44,935 nt of DNA, taken from IMG/VR virus record IMGVR_UViG_643348551_000004; one strand, written 5' to 3'. The stretch's first letter is position 1; the number at the start of each line of letters is the position of its first letter. Below the pieces are notes generated by a model. It worked only from the letters and a program-made list of their open reading frames with translations, did not search any database and had not been told where the DNA came from. Source of the DNA: a virus (Duplodnaviria; Heunggongvirae; Uroviricota; Caudoviricetes). Made by a program: the position numbers and the translations under genes. Below, piece after piece: positions 2,275 through 12,271 of the stretch.

Positions 2275-2853
2275 ATGGTAAATCAGCAACAGCAACAGAT
2301 TAACGAAAATCTAAAAATTGAGGCAATCCGTTGGTATCAGAAGCTGCAGGAGATTACTTATCTTGAAGCAGGACAACACATGCGGGCTTTAAATCAGCTC
2401 ATGTGGCAAATCCCTAGTTTCGTAATTGCTGTCAATGGTGGGTTGTGGTATGCAACAACACTGGCAAATGAAAGTTCCCTATGGATTATCTTTGCAGTGT
2501 TAGCATTGTTTGATTTCACAACAATGATTACACTTTATCGCTTAAGGTCTTTAATTGGTTCGAAAATAGCACTACAAAAAAACATTGAAGATCCTTCAAA
2601 AAACTATATTTTAAATGAAATTACTAGAGACGCTGGATTTAAATTGCCCTCTAGCTATGATAATAAGGAAACTGGTTACATAGTAGTGTCGTGCTGGGCA
2701 GTAATGCTTATTGTTTGCTTCTTTGTTAATATTGCTGGAGTATATCATCCAAACTTGTTTTCAAAAGACATTTCACATAATACATACAAAGCAACAATTA
2801 AAAATATTGAGTCAGGATTATTTATCGAAGCAAAATCAGGATTATCAAAGTGA
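2275..2853 (+). CDS. Small integral membrane protein, about 3 predicted TM helices
   Basis: ATG at 2275 preceded by AGGGA; hydrophobic segments IPSFVIAVNGGLWYATTL, LWIIFAVLALFDFTTMITLY, GYIVVSCWAVMLIVCFFVNIAGV; AT-rich; opposite strand to the flanking early operon; a TTG at 2221 is an alternative start. Confidence 0.5.
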   Translation: MVNQQQQQINENLKIEAIRWYQKLQEITYLEAGQHMRALNQLMWQIPSFVIAVNGGLWYATTLANESSLWIIFAVLALFDFTTMITLYRLRSLIGSKIALQKNIEDPSKNYILNEITRDAGFKLPSSYDNKETGYIVVSCWAVMLIVCFFVNIAGVYHPNLFSKDISHNTYKATIKNIESGLFIEAKSGLSK

Positions 2854-3452
2854 CTTCGTGGAAGTTTTATGACAATAATGCTGATCGCTTATTTGCCGAT
2901 TATATATCACTTGATTTTTACTCTATCTTTCAGGATGTTGAAGAGTTTATTTTACAATCTAAGGGTGTCTCTTTGGATGTCGGTTCAGGTTCCGGCCGTG
3001 ATGCTGCTGCGTTAGATGAATTAGGTTATAAAGTAATAGCTGTTGAACCAAGTGAAAAGATGCGAAATTTGGCATCTTCATATTATAAATCTAACCATAT
3101 TATATGGTTAGATGATTCATTGCCTTTTCTTCATAGTGTTAAAGCAATGAATCTAAAGTTCGACCTTATTTTAGTCAGTGCTGTATGGATGCATCTTTCA
3201 AAAAAAGAGCAAAAAATCTCACTAGAGACGCTAACTGATCTTTTAACATTGAATGGGAGAATGATAATTACATTGCGCTTAGGACCTCCCGAACCAGATA
3301 GAAACATTAACGTTGTTAATACTGAGGAACTTCTTGAGTTAGCGTCTCAGTTAGGTCTGAAAACATTGCGAGTTACGTCAATAAATAAAGATAGTTTTCA
3401 ACGTAACCAGATAACTTGGCAGAAAGTTGTATTATCAAAAAATAATGAGTAA
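2850..3452 (+). CDS. Class I SAM-dependent methyltransferase, small-molecule (TehB-like) type
   Basis: Motif I LDVGSGSGRDAAAL and post-I acidic residue; about 200 aa with no DNA-MTase DPPY/target-recognition features; GTG start overlaps the upstream stop (GTGA). Confidence 0.6.
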   Translation: MTSWKFYDNNADRLFADYISLDFYSIFQDVEEFILQSKGVSLDVGSGSGRDAAALDELGYKVIAVEPSEKMRNLASSYYKSNHIIWLDDSLPFLHSVKAMNLKFDLILVSAVWMHLSKKEQKISLETLTDLLTLNGRMIITLRLGPPEPDRNINVVNTEELLELASQLGLKTLRVTSINKDSFQRNQITWQKVVLSKNNE

Positions 3453-3463
3453 ATAACTTAGTA

Positions 3464-4708
3464 TTATTCGCACAGACCGTAGCGTGAAGAGCAAACCTCT
3501 ATATCGAGACTTGCTTTTACAAGATCGTAGACCTTGCCACCGCGCCCTGTTTTTGCCCACTCTACGACTTCATAAACACCCGGAGAATTAAGATCTCCAC
3601 GAGGACCATAAAATCCTGACCAGTCGATGTGTTGCACATCAGGTTTTAGCCCAAAAAGTTGAATATTTCGACCAAGTGGCAGATTGAACTGTTTCATCCA
3701 GCGTTGGCTTATCTCTCCTACGCTCATCCAGTGTACCCATCTACTAGCAAGGCGTACCTTCAACTCCCATTGTTTGTGCTTTTTGATGTGCTCTGGCCAG
3801 CGCGCAGCCGTCTCTGCAATTTCCTCTTTGTTGCATAGCACGCAATTCATGCAGCCAACACGAGACGCACCTTGCATATAAAGTGGATTTGGCTTAATTC
3901 CGAAATATTTGTGAACTGCGAATACGTCCTCAGCCGTCCATTTGTGGAGCGGCAGGAAGTTGTAGAGAAAATCGGCGTCGCGCATATCGCGGGAAAACCT
4001 CTCATATCCAGCGCGCTTAGAGGACTCATCCGCGCGAACACCAGACCATTGTACGATAACATCGCCAGCATCAAGGAGCGGCTTTATGGCTGCGTCGAAA
4101 GCTATCTGAATTTTCAGTTCGTCTGTACAGAATCGGTCGCGCAGCATAGGGAACTTGCCATGCAGAAGGGAGCAATCCAAAAAGCTATTACCGGATGGGT
4201 GCATAACGGAAAGCGCAGCATCAAGAGCAGTTTCGAACTCAATTCCCCAGCGTTCTGCTGTGCGCTTCCAGGCTTGCCCGAATTTGGTGTCAGAACGTGC
4301 GAGGGAAGGCATGACTATGCCACGGTATGCTCCCATGCGGATCATCTGTCGTTTAGACCAGTTTTTTTGCAGATAAATTCGTCGTTTGGCAAAATCTTCT
4401 TCAGTGTAAATCCGCTTCACAACCTGCACAGGGCTACAACCGATCTGCTCATGAATGCTCCTGGCGAATTCGACAGTTAGATTATGCTCATTATCCGTGT
4501 CTGCCATAACAGCATGTACCTGTTTGCCGAATAATGTGTGCGCCACTGCGAGTGTGGCAGTGCTGTCTTTTCCTGCTGAATAATTCACGATTATCTTATG
4601 ATCATTAGGGATGCGAAATTCATTTATATATCTGTTGTAGGACTCTTCTATTTCGCGAATTTTCTTGCTGATGTCTGTTGGGACAATAATTATTGCTGCC
4701 TCGTTCAT
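3464..4708 (-). CDS. PAPS reductase / PP-loop ATP pyrophosphatase family protein (DndC-like fold)
   Basis: 414-aa ORF with N-terminal PP-loop NYSAGKDS; GGGAGG RBS; start overlaps the stop of the upstream small ORF (ATGA). Confidence 0.7.
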   Translation of the reverse strand: MNEAAIIIVPTDISKKIREIEESYNRYINEFRIPNDHKIIVNYSAGKDSTATLAVAHTLFGKQVHAVMADTDNEHNLTVEFARSIHEQIGCSPVQVVKRIYTEEDFAKRRIYLQKNWSKRQMIRMGAYRGIVMPSLARSDTKFGQAWKRTAERWGIEFETALDAALSVMHPSGNSFLDCSLLHGKFPMLRDRFCTDELKIQIAFDAAIKPLLDAGDVIVQWSGVRADESSKRAGYERFSRDMRDADFLYNFLPLHKWTAEDVFAVHKYFGIKPNPLYMQGASRVGCMNCVLCNKEEIAETAARWPEHIKKHKQWELKVRLASRWVHWMSVGEISQRWMKQFNLPLGRNIQLFGLKPDVQHIDWSGFYGPRGDLNSPGVYEVVEWAKTGRGGKVYDLVKASLDIEVCSSRYGLCE

Positions 4709-4863
4709 ACCGCCTCCCGTTTATTATTTATCTCCTCAGCCAGCCGCTGGGCTTTCAGCGGATTTCGGATAACAGAAAGCCCGGGAAATACCCAGCCTCG
4801 CTTTGTAACGGAGTAGACGAAAGTGATCGCGCCTACCCGGATATTATCGTGAGGATGCGTCAT
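4705..4863 (-). CDS. Small ORF downstream of exo (52 aa), in the position of lambda orf60a
   Basis: ATG overlaps the exo stop (ATGA) and its own stop overlaps the next start (ATGA), suggesting translational coupling; below the ORF-track length cutoff, translated by hand. Confidence 0.35.
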
Positions 4864-5540
4864 CGCCATTGCTCCCCAAATACAAAACCAATTTCAGCCA
4901 GTGCCTCGTCCATTTTTTCGATGAACTCCGGCACCATCTCGTCAAAACTCGCCATATACTTTTCATTCCGCTCAATCACGACATAATGCAGGCCTTCACG
5001 CTTCATGCGCGGGTCATAGTTGGCAAAGTACCAGGCATCTTTTCGCGTCACCCACATGCTGTACTGCACCTGGGCCATGTAAGCCGACTTTATGGCCTCG
5101 AAACCACCGAGCCGGAACTTCATGAAATCCCGGGAGGTAAACGGGCATTTCAGCTCAAGGCCATTGCCGTCACTGCATAAACCATCGGGAGAGCAGGCGG
5201 TGCGCATACTTTCGTCGCGATAGATGATCGGGGATTCAGTAACATTCACGCCGGAAGTGAATTCAAACAGAGTTCTGGCGTCGTTCTCGTACTGTTTTCC
5301 CCATGCCAGCGCCTTAGCATTAACTTCCGGAGCCACACCGGTGCAAACCTCAGCCAGCAGGGTGTGGAAGTAGGACATTTTCATGTCAGGCCACTTCTTT
5401 CCTGAGCGGGGCTTTGCTATCACGTTGTGAACTTCTGAAGCGGTGATGACGCCGAGCCGTAATTTGTGCCATGCATCATCCCCCTGTTCGACAGCTCTCA
5501 CGTCGATCCCGGTACGCTGCAGGATAATGTCCGGTGTCAT
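4860..5540 (-). CDS. exo: Lambda-type 5'-3' exonuclease (Red-alpha)
   Basis: 226 aa, recalled as near-identical to lambda Exo ([39 protein letters not shown]...). Confidence 0.95.
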
Positions 5541-6322
5541 GCTGCCACCTTCTGCTCAGTGGCTTTCTGTTTCAGGAATCCAAGAGCTTTTACTGCTTCG
5601 GCCTGTGTCAGTTCTGACGATGCGCGAATGTCGCGGCGAAATATCTGGGAACAGAGCGGCAATAAGTCGTCATCCCATGTTTTGTCCAGGGCAATCAGCA
5701 GAGTGTTAATCTCCTGCATGGTTTCATCGTTAACCGGAGTGATGTCGCGTTCCGGCTGGCGTTCTGCAGTGTATGCGGTATTTTCGACAATGCGCTCGGC
5801 TTCATCCTTGTCATAGATACCAGCAAATCCGAAGGCCAGACGGGCACACTGAATCATGGCTTTATGCCGTAACATCCGTTTGGGATGCGACTGCCACGGC
5901 CCCGTGATTTCTCTGCCTTCGCGGGTTTTGAATGGTTCGCGGCGGCATTCATCCATCCATTCGGTAACGCAGATCGGATGATTACGGTCCTTGCGGTAAA
6001 TCCGGCATGTACAGGATTCGTTGTCCTGCTCAAAGTCCATGCCATCAAACTGCTGGTTTTCATTGATGATGCGGGACCAGCCATCAACGCCCACCACCGG
6101 AACGATGCCGTTCTGCTTATCAGGGAAGGCGTAAATTTCTTTCGTCCACGGATTAAGGCCGTACTGGTTGGCGACGATCAGCAATGCGATGAACTGCGCA
6201 TCGCTGGCATCGCCTTTAAATGCCGTCTGGCGAAGAGTGGTGATCAGTTCCTGTGGGTCGACAGAATCCATGCCGACACGTTCAGCCAGCTTCCCAGCCA
6301 GCGTTGCGAGTGCTGTACTCAT
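5537..6322 (-). CDS. bet: Lambda-type ssDNA-annealing recombinase (Red-beta)
   Basis: 261 aa, recalled as near-identical to lambda Bet; overlaps exo start by 4 nt. Confidence 0.95.
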
Positions 6323-6327
6323 CCGTT

Positions 6328-6624
6328 TTATACCTCTGAATCAATATCAACCTGATGGTGAGCAATGGTTTCAACCATGTACCGGATGTGTTCTGCCATG
6401 CGCTCCTGAAACTCAACATCGTCATCAAATGCACGGGTAATGGCTTTTTTGCTGGCCCCGCAGCGTTGTAAATGATCGATGCAGAGCGATTCAAACAAAT
6501 GCTGGGGCAGGCCTTTTTCCATGTCGTCTGCCAGTTCTGCCTCTTTCTCTTCACGGGCGATCTGCTGGTAGTGACGCGCCCAGCTCTGAGCCTCAAGACG
6601 ATCCTGAATGTAATAAGCGTTCAT
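6328..6624 (-). CDS. gam: Gam, RecBCD inhibitor (98-aa short form)
   Basis: [21 protein letters not shown]... matches the C-terminal 98 residues of lambda Gam. Confidence 0.9.
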
Positions 6625-6699
6625 GGCTGAACTCCTGAAAATGGCTGTGAAAATATCGCCCGCGAAATGCCAGGCTGATTAGGAAAACAGGAAAGGGGA

Positions 6700-6906
6700 T
6701 TAGCGATTCAGGCCGTTACCGCGTCCGTCGAGAAAAACTTCCACGAGCAAATCACGGGTATAAGTGCGCTCGATGCCGCGATGCAGATAAAGCCGTCCGC
6801 GTAAATTAGCTGATGCAGTCCAGGTACCATCTTTGTGTTTGACCAGCATTCCTGGCATGACCGCACCGCGATTAACGGTCTGCGTTCCGTAATGTTGATG
6901 AACCAT
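6700..6906 (-). CDS. Kil-like small protein (68 aa), possible host cell-division inhibitor
   Basis: ATG at 6906 with AGGAG RBS and 5-nt spacer; resembles Rac KilR as recalled; the 136-aa ORF-track call uses an upstream TTG with no RBS. Confidence 0.45.
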
Positions 6907-7183
6907 AAAAACTCCTGCCCGTAAGCTGGGCTGCTGAACATATAGAGACTTCTGCGCGTATTCAGGCGGTGGATGGCCGCCGGTTGTCATAACTAAGCCG
7001 CCTCGTTGAAGCGACTGAGGTATAAAGTGTTGTGTTGATTTCAGCTGGTCACACCGACGTTCACGCGTCCGCTTCACCCCTCGCACTCCCCGGAGCCTGC
7101 TGAAATTCAAGCTGCGGATCTAAGCGGTCATCGCAACGGTGAATCAGGTGATTGCCGTATCGTTGTGTTGTTGCGACATGGGG

Positions 7184-7212
7184 ATAATAGCTATTGCTAT
7201 TGATGATATCAA
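7184..7212 (-). promoter_or_regulatory. pL-like early-left promoter (TTGATA-17-TATTAT) with operator repeats in the spacer
   Basis: On the minus strand: -35 TTGATA (7212-7207), 17-nt spacer, -10 TATTAT (7189-7184); spacer contains CAATAGCAATAGC, also found in the cI/cro intergenic region. Confidence 0.45.
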
Positions 7213-7348
7213 TACTTATTGCTATTGCTAGATGTGTTTTGATATTAAATGTTTGATAGCAAAAAGAATTAATTTTGTGACTTGCATCGCATAGCGATAA
7301 CTGAAGCGAGGTCGTGGTGGTTTTTTGAACGGTGTGTGATGAGGGGAG

Positions 7349-7381
7349 GGCAAAAGAAAACCCGGCACGGTGGCCGGGTTT
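7349..7381 (-). terminator. Rho-independent terminator ending the cI-operon, upstream of pL
   Basis: Minus-strand hairpin CCCGGC-6nt-GCCGGG extended by A/T pairs, followed by TTTTCTTTTG; about 75 nt past the 7456 stop. Confidence 0.5.
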
Positions 7382-7455
7382 AGATGATTGGTTAAGAGCG
7401 AGGGTAATGGGGAATGAAAAATCGCTTTACCTAATGCAAGGGTGCGAGCATTTTC

Positions 7456-7899
7456 TTAAGCACTAAAGAAAAAGTACATTGATAGCTTATAAAGTCCTGT
7501 TCCTGCAGCGATGATTGCTGGAACACCAAGCAATACCGCAAGCTTTGCGTCTGAAATCTTTCTATCGACAGCATCACTTGATGGCTTGTTTGTTAAGGAT
7601 TCTTTTATAGAGTCCAGACGTGCAAGAATAGTTATCATATTTTTGTCGATAGCTTTAACGTCTGTTTTAAGTTCATCAACGTCTCGTTTGATATGAGCAA
7701 CATCGGACTCCAGTTTTGCAACTTTTTCAGGCATGTTATCACTCCCAGACCCACTGCTACCACTTGATTGTAGCATGTCCCATCTTTTTCCAGATATACC
7801 TGCTAGCTGGGAAGACGCACTGGAGTGCAAACAAAATGATTCTGCCGCCTTTGCAATTTTATCATTTAGGTTTGGAGCTTCGTAATAATCGTGTTTCAT
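7456..7899 (-). CDS. Hypothetical 147-aa protein: coiled-coil plus single C-terminal TM helix
   Basis: ATG at 7899; Ser/Gly linker; heptad-like KVAKLESDVAHIKRDVDELKTDVKAIDKNMITILARLDSIKESL; hydrophobic tail LAVLLGVPAIIAAGTGLYKLSMYFFFSA; AT-rich. Confidence 0.55.
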   Translation of the reverse strand: MKHDYYEAPNLNDKIAKAAESFCLHSSASSQLAGISGKRWDMLQSSGSSGSGSDNMPEKVAKLESDVAHIKRDVDELKTDVKAIDKNMITILARLDSIKESLTNKPSSDAVDRKISDAKLAVLLGVPAIIAAGTGLYKLSMYFFFSA

Positions 7900-7911
7900 A
7901 ATTAATTACGA

Positions 7912-8175
7912 TTAGTTTGTTTTAGCTTTGTCATGCTGGTCGCGAATGAAGTCAGCCAATTTAAGCATCAATTCTTCGGGCATTCTAATGGTTGCAATGT
8001 TGTACTTTATGTTCTCAACATCGTCACTTTCATCAACAGGCCATTCAGTTACATTATGAAAAAAAGAAATTGAACCTAGGCGCTGAGAGCCGTCACCAAA
8101 CGAAGAGTAGCCAAACGCGTCGGCGTATGCATCGACACAGTTATTTGATTTTTTAACAAGTGTTTTATTACTCAT
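7912..8175 (-). CDS. Hypothetical 87-aa acidic soluble protein
   Basis: ATG at 8175 with GGAAAGG upstream; immediately downstream of cI on the same strand; stop is 12 nt before the next ORF start. Confidence 0.5.
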   Translation of the reverse strand: MSNKTLVKKSNNCVDAYADAFGYSSFGDGSQRLGSISFFHNVTEWPVDESDDVENIKYNIATIRMPEELMLKLADFIRDQHDKAKTN

Positions 8176-8257
8176 TTTTTGCCTTTCCCGTAATGTTATT
8201 TTTTATAAGGTATTTTCTTCAGCGTATTACCCAAAAGCCTCATCAACACGCGGCTGA

Positions 8258-8950
8258 TTATCCGTGTTTTCTGTACGTCTGCGGCATGCTCCCAATAACC
8301 TTACCGAATATGAATACCCGGTTCATCTCGTCTTTCTCGATCGGGTCCCACGGTGAGTAGCTCTTGTTATCAGAGATAACCAGTAGCTTATCCTTCATCA
8401 TTTGCAGGCGCTTTACATGGGCGGTGTCGTCATACAGAAACGCATAGATACCATCACCGTCGAAAGATTTAACCGTGATATCAACGAACAGCAGATCACC
8501 TGGTTCGATCGTTCCTGACATGCTGTCACCACGCACGTTAATGATGCGGATATTTTCCGCCTTCCTGCCATCGAACATGTGACGAGCATCGTCAAACGAG
8601 TATTCAACCGAGCGTAGAACTTCTACAAACTCACGGTTGATTACACCCGGCCCGGCACTGACTTCTATATCAAGAACGTCAATTTTGAAGTATTTGGAAT
8701 GGCTGACAGCAGGCTTCCCTGATTGTTGACCGTCATTTCTCATCGGGCCTATGCCTGATGAGAGCCATTCTGTTCGAACACCCAATGCATTAGCTATTTC
8801 AACAATTTTTGTTGAGCCGCGCGCGTTGCCGCTTGTCAGTCTCCAGATTGTGGGTTGAGCTACGCCAGACGCCTTTGCAAGAGCGCCTTGAGACATTCCA
8901 GATTGTTCCATCGCTAGGTTTAAGCGATCAGCAAGAGTTTCTTTTTTCAT
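8258..8950 (-). CDS. cI: CI-type prophage repressor (HTH plus S24 LexA-like autopeptidase domain)
   Basis: N-terminal HTH (SQGALAKASGVAQPTIWRL), C-terminal Ser/Lys dyad context (GDSMSGT ... VKRLQ); ATG at 8950 has no SD, consistent with a leaderless transcript. Confidence 0.85.
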   Translation of the reverse strand: MKKETLADRLNLAMEQSGMSQGALAKASGVAQPTIWRLTSGNARGSTKIVEIANALGVRTEWLSSGIGPMRNDGQQSGKPAVSHSKYFKIDVLDIEVSAGPGVINREFVEVLRSVEYSFDDARHMFDGRKAENIRIINVRGDSMSGTIEPGDLLFVDITVKSFDGDGIYAFLYDDTAHVKRLQMMKDKLLVISDNKSYSPWDPIEKDEMNRVFIFGKVIGSMPQTYRKHG

Positions 8951-8957
8951 AAGTTTT

Positions 8958-9029
8958 AATTTATACGCTTGCGTATTGATGGTCAAAACACGTTTTGCTA
9001 TTGCTTGGATTAATACGCATTGCTATTAT
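8958..9029. promoter_or_regulatory. Divergent pRM / pR promoters with OR-like operator repeats
   Basis: Minus strand: TTGACC (8986-8981)-17-TAAATT (8963-8958), 7 nt to the cI ATG; plus strand: TTGCTT (9001-9006)-17-TATTAT (9024-9029); TTGCTATTG-type repeats between and within. Confidence 0.5.
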
Positions 9030-9060
9030 TCATTCATTGCAATACCAATAGGAATTGATA

Positions 9061-9288
9061 ATGACAAATCAAACCATTCAACTCGCAATCAGTATTACAG
9101 GTAGTCAAAAACGACTGGCAGATCTATGCGGTGTAGCCCAACCCACAGTTTGGCGTTGGCTACACGGTGGCGGAATTGATGCCCGCTATGTAATGAAAAT
9201 TGTCTCAGCCACTGGTGGAAAGATTAAACCAGCAGATATTCGTCCCGACCTCGCACCATTGTTTAACGCGAGTAATTCTGCCGCCTAA
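9061..9288 (+). CDS. cro: Cro-like HTH regulator
   Basis: 75 aa, HTH QKRLADLCGVAQPTVWRW; AGGAA RBS 8 nt upstream; divergent from cI. Confidence 0.75.
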   Translation: MTNQTIQLAISITGSQKRLADLCGVAQPTVWRWLHGGGIDARYVMKIVSATGGKIKPADIRPDLAPLFNASNSAA

Positions 9289-9312
9289 ACTGCGGCGTTA
9301 ACTGATAAGGCA

Positions 9313-9858
9313 ATGACTATGCAACCACTTACATACCAACAGACTAGCGGATTTAGCCCGACTGCGGTGATAAATCGTTCTCAAACAAAACAGGCGCCAG
9401 GCCACGAAAAAATCCGTGATGCCGTTCGCGCCTGGTCGGCTGCAGATAATCAGGATGTTGTTGCCGCACTCATTGTGAATGAGTATCGGGAGCAGGGCGG
9501 CGGCACCATCGATTTCCCTGATGATGTCAGCCGTGCACGCCAGAAGCTGTTCCGCTTCCTCGATAACAAATTCGATTCTGAAAAATACCGAAATAACGTG
9601 CGTGAACTGACCCCGGCAATTCTGGCGGTACTACCGCTGGAATATCGCGGCCACCTGGTTGAGCAGGATAGCTTCATGGCTCGGCTGGCTGAAATGGAAA
9701 AGGAACTCAGTGAGGCAAAACAGGCTGTCATTCTCAACGCACCACGCCACCAGAAACTGAAGGAAATTAGTGAAGGTATTGTGTCGATGTTTCGTGTGGA
9801 CCCAGATCTGGCTGGTCCATTGATGGCGATGGTTACTACCATGCTGGGGGCGATATGA
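9313..9858 (+). CDS. Regulatory protein in the cII position, possibly YdaT/CII-like
   Basis: 181 aa between cro and O; not lambda cII; a better-spaced start is ATG 9319; family assignment from recall only. Confidence 0.45.
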   Translation: MTMQPLTYQQTSGFSPTAVINRSQTKQAPGHEKIRDAVRAWSAADNQDVVAALIVNEYREQGGGTIDFPDDVSRARQKLFRFLDNKFDSEKYRNNVRELTPAILAVLPLEYRGHLVEQDSFMARLAEMEKELSEAKQAVILNAPRHQKLKEISEGIVSMFRVDPDLAGPLMAMVTTMLGAI

Positions 9859-11938: not shown

Positions 11939-12271
11939 ATGAACCCTTATATTTATCTTGGTGGTGCAATACTTGCAGAGGTCATTGGTACAACCTTAAT
12001 GAAGTTTTCAGAAGGTTTTACACGGTTATGGCCATCTGTTGGTACAATTATCTGTTATTGTGCATCATTCTGGTTATTAGCTCAGACGCTGGCTTATATT
12101 CCTACAGGGATTGCTTATGCTATCTGGTCAGGAGTCGGTATTGTCCTGATTAGCTTACTGTCATGGGGATTTTTCGGCCAACGGCTGGACCTGCCAGCCA
12201 TTATAGGCATGATGTTGATTTGTGCCGGTGTGTTGGTTATTAATTTATTGTCACGAAGCACACCACATTAA
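11939..12271 (+). CDS. emrE: SMR-family multidrug efflux protein EmrE
   Basis: 110 aa, MNPYIYLGGAILAEVIGTTLMKFSEGF... recalled as E. coli EmrE (a DLP12 prophage gene). Confidence 0.9.
   Translation: MNPYIYLGGAILAEVIGTTLMKFSEGFTRLWPSVGTIICYCASFWLLAQTLAYIPTGIAYAIWSGVGIVLISLLSWGFFGQRLDLPAIIGMMLICAGVLVINLLSRSTPH

Follow-up and report, generated by a model that had tools for sequence, protein, structure and literature searches.

Between cI and N lies a mosaic hotspot, which is occupied by RexAB in lambda and by BstA, co-expressed with the repressor, in BTP1; Rex exclusion is suppressed when RexB is in excess over RexA (PMC8585504). SieA, the exclusion protein of P22, is a single protein with three transmembrane (TM) helices and a cytoplasmic FxRYPxEAxxFNK motif, and its gene is carried by only 22 of 66 P22-like phages (PMC10883804). 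As a concept, the combination of a soluble and a membrane protein in the rex slot is already known. Here, we analysed a two-gene cassette that occupies this slot in a virus record of 44,935 nucleotides (IMG/VR IMGVR_UViG_643348551_000004; this whole stretch is termed the window). Judged from its position and architecture, the cassette is probably a new exclusion or abortive-infection system.

The window is a lambdoid, DLP12-like prophage that is inserted beside a tRNA-Arg gene and carries emrE, ybcK, rusA and quuD. The emrE gene and the ybcK recombinase gene are found inside the prophage at 11939-12271 and downstream, between ren and the nin region, as in DLP12. Over positions 7300-8260, Escherichia coli SE11 has 100% identity to the window, and its RefSeq annotation contains the same two coding sequences, of 87 and 147 aa, that a preliminary description had recognized as open reading frames (ORFs). 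On the minus strand, we observed the order OR, cI, an 82-nt spacer, the 87-aa ORF, a 12-nt gap, the 147-aa ORF, a terminator and OL/pL; the cassette is thus flanked by the cI repressor gene and the OL/pL operators. The cI-type repressor gene (8258-8986, minus strand; 8258-8950 in the RefSeq start version) encodes an S24 domain (Pfam Peptidase_S24, 1.5e-18) and a helix-turn-helix (HTH_3, 1.5e-6). The genes for a Cro-like protein and for cII, O and P run opposite to cI, and a second operator cluster at 8995-9054 marks OR. On the other side, the OL-like operator repeats and the pL-like promoter are located at 7184-7230 (minus strand), with TAGCAATAGCAA-like repeats at 7188-7230. The promoter itself is sigma-70-like (7212-7184, minus strand), matches 10 of 12 consensus positions and sits within the operator cluster. 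The ORF map, the domains of cI and these operators confirm that the cassette is in the rex slot, as the preliminary description had proposed.

No terminator separates the repressor gene from the two co-oriented and tightly spaced cassette genes, and the spacer between cI and the 87-aa gene (8176-8257, minus strand) has neither a same-strand terminator nor a consensus promoter. The cI gene is probably the source of cassette transcription. As the 147-aa gene starts 12 nt past the stop codon of its partner and has no obvious Shine-Dalgarno (SD) sequence, its translation is probably coupled to that of the partner gene. The cassette is closed by a rho-independent terminator (7349-7381, minus strand), which consists of a 9-bp GC-rich stem (7381-7358) followed by TCTTTT, and the flank that contains this terminator is kept at 89-99% identity in other lambdoid phages. 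The GC content of 7450-8200 is 0.38-0.40 compared to 0.45-0.54 on either side. Both the cassette's own terminator and its AT-richness had been described before and are upheld here.

Some further features of the surrounding region were observed. Beyond OL/pL, the minus strand continues with a leader of about 280 nt and then with kil, gam, bet and exo. This leader is untranslated (6907-7183, minus strand), without an annotated N-like gene from the pL-like promoter to kil (6700-6906), and the gene-free gap between pL and kil is also present in the sister phages 4A7 and PhiR47_2. Around the terminator, just upstream of the leader, the transcribed strand is strongly C-rich, with a GC skew of +0.42 at 7150-7449. 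The idea of a put-like RNA in the pL leader (6960-7185) was dropped because its folding gave a z of only -0.9, and an Rfam scan of 6000-9500 yielded nothing relevant. Between the xis-side genes and exo (approximately 2275-4708), the SE11 RefSeq annotation contains a hypothetical gene, a class I SAM methyltransferase and a PAPS-reductase-family gene; this set may be a DNA-modification or anti-restriction module.

The 87-aa gene (7912-8175, minus strand; phrog_4231 at 7e-54) encodes an acidic partner protein with a pI of 4.96, a net charge of -4.3 and no hydrophobic segment, in agreement with the earlier reading of a soluble protein. Its AlphaFold (AF2) model (pLDDT 78) has a four-stranded beta sheet that is followed by a C-terminal helix. 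We refer to this type of partner as family A; its motif is NNCVDxYADxFGYSSFG. When a family A profile was searched against 1.84 billion representatives, only 8 relatives were found, and none of them links family A to any larger family.

The 147-aa gene (7456-7899, minus strand; phrog_3556 at 1.5e-58) encodes a predicted tail-anchored coiled-coil protein. In the structure model, a helix at residues 11-28 is followed by a disordered Ser/Gly stretch (29-55), a long helix (56-103) and another helix (108-146). The first two elements form an N-terminal region (residues 1-55; 7735-7899, minus strand) that is variable in the alignment and across loci. The coiled coil comprises the 48 aa of residues 56-103 (7591-7734, minus strand) and has a clean 3-4 heptad pattern of V, I and L. 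Hydropathy and invariant alignment columns place the C-terminal TM helix at residues 118-137 (AKLAVLLGVPAIIAAGTGLY; 7489-7548, minus strand), with a tail of about 10 residues after it. The top 19-mer by hydrophobicity (residues 118-136, Kyte-Doolittle mean 1.8) is part of the sole hydrophobic segment of the protein. Model and hydropathy hence agree with the preliminary description of a Ser/Gly linker, a coiled coil and one C-terminal TM helix. Since the protein lacks a signal peptide and extends only about 10 residues beyond its TM helix, it is expected to be tail-anchored, with its bulk in the cytoplasm.

Both genes are conserved at the protein level. In comparisons with homologues of 65-76% identity, the 87-aa gene has a dN/dS of 0.05-0.16, and codons 56-147 of the 147-aa gene have a value of 0.12-0.13. 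Evolution is faster in codons 1-55 (dN/dS 0.16-0.6), where the reading frame is nevertheless kept. These values, together with the conservation across genera, indicate purifying selection on both genes and rule out that they are chance ORFs. Within the 147-aa family, 12 of the 15 invariant columns fall into residues 105-138 (KPS, then AKL..L..P.....GT...K), and the TM helix is the best-conserved part, ahead of the coiled coil. Such conservation is unusual for a mere anchor; as P127, G133, T134 and K138 are invariant, the alignment suggests that the TM helix has a role beyond anchoring.

Sequence and structure searches connected neither protein to a characterized family. For RexA, no match was found in Pfam at E<=1 or in NCBIfam and PADLOC at E<=10, and for RexB there was likewise none (Pfam at E<=1; no RexB family match), which confirms the earlier statement that the pair does not resemble RexA or RexB. 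With PADLOC-DB 2.0.0, the 147-aa protein produced coiled-coil noise only (E >= 0.004) and the 87-aa protein nothing; across Pfam, NCBIfam and PADLOC, no family rose above such noise for either protein, and no significant similarity to a known defence, holin or toxin family was detected. The preliminary description had proposed remote-homology and structure searches for both proteins. In these, Foldseek against BFVD returned nothing, and profile searches against PDB sequences returned only coiled coils, many of them trimeric, for the 147-aa protein and nothing for its partner. The two PHROGs are both of unknown function. Although the exact 87-aa and 147-aa proteins are each present on at least 1000 contigs, they are called 'hypothetical' in almost every source; a single stray 'Lpp' annotation stems from coiled-coil similarity. 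A literature search with cassette accessions, locus tags and PHROG ids found no paper, and the cassette proteins are absent from the DefensePredictor supplements; papers on the svsR sRNA and on HepS concern other loci. We thus found no paper, accession or curated family that describes these proteins, and their two-way modularity and possible dual start, which are described below, are also new.

Matches to XhlA or 'hemolysin' families were recurrent, all of them below threshold (phrog_1193 at 1.4e-4; PF10779 at E 0.002-0.2). In PF10779 (XhlA), the window protein scores 12.1 bits and other tail types 14.4-18.6 bits, below the gathering threshold of 34.7 bits, and these matches could merely reflect the composition of a coiled coil plus a TM helix. 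They nevertheless bear on the alternative that the cassette is not a defence system at all but a conversion or physiology factor, for example a tail-anchored stress or ribosome-associated protein like ElaB/YqjD, or a modulator of the phage's own lysis timing in the manner of an XhlA-like holin accessory. ElaB and YqjD consist of a cytoplasmic coiled coil and a C-terminal TM helix, and this architecture, which XhlA shares, is also that of the cassette protein. Against this alternative, the 147-aa protein has no match to DUF883 and the XhlA matches stay below threshold. Furthermore, among the loci examined the cassette never lies within a lysis cassette but is found beside repressors.

To these features our comparison adds three that the preliminary description had missed, namely a two-way modularity, a conserved unit that consists of the C-terminal 92 residues alone, and a start codon at Met56, which the evidence suggests to be in use. 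In most homologues of the 147-aa protein, only residues 55-147 match and the N-termini are unrelated. The alignments thus point to the C-terminal 92 residues as the only conserved unit. This tail is always encoded by the second gene: a window-type tail with another N-terminus was examined in 26 distinct IMG/VR loci, all of which have a same-strand ORF upstream, and in 25 of them this ORF belongs to one of four further groups of soluble partners. These are beta-rich proteins of 136-187 aa, a 93-106-aa family (family C), an 88-aa family (family D) and a 118-119-aa family with a double-CxxC Zn ribbon. For the window tail, at least five other combinations of N-terminus and partner were observed. 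Between families A and D, hhalign reveals a remote homology (probability 86%, E 4.8e-6), whereas family C (93 aa) is not significantly similar to A or D in hhalign (E ~0.09, with co-linear alignments). Beyond the Zn ribbon and coiled-coil noise, ten alternative partners had no match in Pfam or PADLOC. In one locus (L082, 1022-1761), the upstream gene itself encodes a 99-aa tail-anchored coiled coil, resulting in a tandem of two such proteins.

The exchange is also seen from the other side. An A-type partner always precedes a protein with a related N-terminal peptide (D-Y-Y-E-x-P-x-L, then a helix), and this peptide is linked by Gly/Ser to at least five unrelated coiled-coil/TM tails. When the DNA of the window is compared to that of the P22-like Salmonella phage UPF_BP1, the two are 84% identical from the partner gene up to window position 7727, which is 5 nt past the ATG of Met56. 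As the identity stops there, the exchange junction corresponds to the start of the coiled coil. The partner and the N-terminal region are thus exchanged together, and the tail is exchanged separately. Partner type and N-terminus type are strictly paired, which suggests a physical interaction between the two; however, plain linkage of adjacent DNA could equally produce the pattern of joint travel. In a 134-aa E. coli protein (P0070), residues 1-57 of the 87-aa partner are fused in frame to a coiled-coil/TM tail of the UPF_BP1 type, and this fusion has apparently arisen by a deletion between VENIK peptides that are common to both genes.

The start of the coiled coil coincides with a candidate internal start site. 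In the window, a putative ribosome-binding site GGGAG (7746-7742) precedes the in-frame ATG of Met56 (7734-7732; whole element 7732-7746, minus strand), and initiation there would yield a short isoform of 92 aa. Across subfamilies, the coiled coil opens with a conserved Met, and in 23 of 30 distinct homologue sequences GGAGG occurs 5-9 nt before this codon. The mean predicted energy of the SD/anti-SD duplex is -9.9 kcal/mol compared to -7.4 kcal/mol for synonymous recodings, where the sequences are mutually related and no single sequence is significant against the recoding null. GGAGG is encoded here by a Gly-rich linker in which GGA makes up 35% of the Gly codons compared to about 11% in E. 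coli overall, and the SD-like motif is thus in part a by-product of the poly-Gly codons. Considering that single sequences are not significant, that the sequences are related and that GGGAG in the window is weaker than most of the motifs, we rate the internal start as suggestive. A form of 90-93 aa is often annotated by gene callers. Genes that encode a long product and a short product nested within it are known from phages, such as S107/S105 of lambda and sieB/esc of P22.

To understand the context in which the cassette occurs, we compared the genes that other phages carry at the same position. The flank of the slot between cI and the conserved terminator is matched in 1,913 E. coli genomes, and related phages hold different genes there. 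The phages 4A7, IdasGreatGrand and PhiR47_2 share one common layout, a gene of 353-357 aa followed by one of 125 aa; this pair is annotated as GevT toxin and GevA antitoxin in PhiR47_2, the 125-aa protein is an ASCH-domain protein in 4A7, and both are hypothetical in IdasGreatGrand. PhiR5_1 carries genes annotated as HipA/HipD, Perceval a 340-aa protein and a 168-aa TM protein, and PhiR68_2 two hypothetical proteins. The PhiR phages reportedly come from Brenes & Laub 2025. Judged from this series of replacements, the slot appears to be an exchange point. Across these related phages (loci L049-L050 and L051-L054), at least four two-gene cassettes other than the one studied here thus occupy the slot, one of them of 341 and 149 aa.

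The occupants of this slot raise the alternative of a toxin-antitoxin or addiction module, in which the acidic 87-aa protein would neutralize a membrane-toxic 147-aa protein, mainly for prophage stabilization and with defence as a possibly secondary effect. A small acidic gene in first place, tight spacing and a membrane protein in second place are reminiscent of toxin-antitoxin operons, and cassettes of sister phages in this very slot are annotated as toxin-antitoxin. However, no toxin-antitoxin family was matched, and the partner lacks recognizable DNA-binding or protease-labile features. We consider such a module quite improbable, while noting that it is not cleanly separable from a Rex-like reading as toxin-antitoxin and abortive-infection roles overlap in prophages.

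A second slot is found in P22-like phages. In UPF_BP1 and five further IMG/VR contigs, mnt is directly followed by the cassette pair, and the pair also follows mnt in Serratia, Leclercia-like and other P22-like prophages. At this post-mnt site, the interval between gene 16 and gene 9, both genes have close homologues in UPF_BP1 and in loci L026-L030, L042 and L010, and in loci L041 and L044 the partner occurs there with a divergent tail protein. The post-mnt site is the position of sieA in P22, whereas the window itself has a lambdoid context. Where cassettes have alternative partners, the gene immediately upstream encoded an HTH repressor in 10 of 10 cases tested, six of them with an S24 domain, and these repressors belong to different immunity types. 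A few cassettes of the family are found in moron slots of the tail region and not beside a repressor (L099, L045 and L046).

Two further observations concern the neighbours of the cassette. In L012, L014 and similar loci (upstream gene at approximately 4160-4920), the cassette is linked to two cI alleles that have unrelated HTH N-termini and an identical C-terminal S24 half. As only the S24 half is shared, a recombination junction must be located within cI, with the cassette and this half of the repressor gene moving together. Immediately downstream of the cassette, and convergent to it, several related prophages have an ORF of 57-77 aa with the motif ..IG[LI]AV..L[VL]..Q.P... that has no match in Pfam and no counterpart in the window (L090 5416-5610, L092 5463-5666, L094 5332-5565, L100 5314-5547 and L109 5312-5485, all on the minus strand of the respective locus).

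The strongest evidence for the function of the cassette is positional, since two unrelated phage types put it behind a lysogeny repressor, either cI or Mnt. It is because these are slots where other phages keep anti-phage genes that we regard an exclusion or abortive-infection function as probable. This role had already been suggested in the preliminary description; the sieA slot, the adjacency to CI-type repressors and the slot-mates annotated as toxin-antitoxin speak in its favour, whereas the failure to match any known defence family speaks against it, and the suggestion is thus partly supported. One alternative is superinfection exclusion at the entry step, as by SieA, Imm or HK97 gp15, in which the membrane-anchored protein and its partner would be present constitutively at the inner membrane and would block or trap the DNA or ejection proteins of incoming phages without cell killing. 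This we think unlikely. We favour a Rex-like switch, based on the position, the combination of a variable cytoplasmic unit with a conserved membrane unit, the holin-like hints and a shuffling of the type known from conflict genes. Hence, our preferred reading, to which we give somewhat less than an even chance, is that the cassette is a lysogen-expressed, Rex-like two-component anti-phage module at the membrane that is unrelated to RexA and RexB.

A Rex-like module of this kind might function as follows. The 147-aa protein would insert into the inner membrane as a tail-anchored oligomer, and its variable N-terminal region would bind the variable soluble partner. The partner and the N-terminal region could then form a specificity or regulatory unit, that is, a sensor, with the conserved coiled-coil/TM unit as the effector. 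Upon a cue from an infecting phage, the effector might perturb the membrane in a holin-like or RexB-like manner so that the infection is aborted. The short product from Met56, comprising the effector unit alone, might tune this activity or provide the prophage with self-immunity.

The distribution of the family is narrow and patchy. We found the complete cassette in 198 of 5,426 complete E. coli genomes (~3.6%), including O26 and O103 strains, and the family occurs in only 9 of 185,579 species-representative genomes. It is thus rare and restricted to the Enterobacterales, where its sources include Pantoea, Erwinia, Serratia, Rahnella, Klebsiella, Enterobacter and Raoultella. Such a distribution, combined with the shuffling of modules, is more typical of conflict genes than of a conversion or physiology factor, and we judge the latter improbable. 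A more general proposal is that these cassettes form an Enterobacterales-wide class of the prophage immunity region with two exchangeable units, a sensor made of partner and N-terminal peptide and a pore-forming tail, which also produces an effector-only isoform and acts by abortive infection. In this full form, the proposal is possible but doubtful.

If active against phages, the cassette would represent a family of defence or exclusion systems that is compact (about 720 bp) and has been overlooked by current annotation tools (PADLOC, Pfam and NCBIfam). Given its presence in about 3.6% of complete E. coli genomes, it could influence phage susceptibility and the outcome of phage therapy in the respective lineages. 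The natural swaps, where one tail has many partners and one partner has many tails, could reveal the coupling between a cytoplasmic sensor and a membrane effector, which has been a question for RexAB for decades.

Lastly, we compared the cassette to the known systems. BstA, GevT/GevA and HipA/HipD use the same repressor-adjacent slot with conserved flanks and are unrelated to the cassette; BstA is a single large DNA-binding protein, whereas GevT/GevA and HipA/HipD are annotated as enzymatic toxin-antitoxin pairs. XhlA (PF10779) has an N-terminal coiled coil and a single C-terminal TM helix within about 90 aa, as do residues 56-147 of the cassette protein, and a second in-frame start of the 147-aa gene, if used, would resemble the dual starts of holin/antiholin genes. 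In contrast to XhlA, the cassette is located in the immunity region instead of the lysis cassette, and it has an additional variable N-terminus and a dedicated partner gene. With SieA, the cassette shares the post-mnt position of P22-like phages and, according to our prediction, a prophage-expressed inner-membrane protein; it differs in having two genes and one TM helix and in lacking the FxRYPxEAxxFNK motif. The similarity to RexAB comprises the identical slot, from cI to OL/pL on the cI strand and closed by a terminator, and the pairing of a soluble with a membrane protein in two genes. There is no sequence similarity between the two systems, and they differ in the lengths of their proteins (87 and 147 aa compared to 279 and 144 aa in Rex) and in their membrane component, where the cassette protein combines a long coiled coil with a single C-terminal TM helix and RexB has four TM helices. 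A further parallel is possible in that both systems may make extra membrane component, the cassette through the internal start and lambda through the pLIT transcript for rexB.
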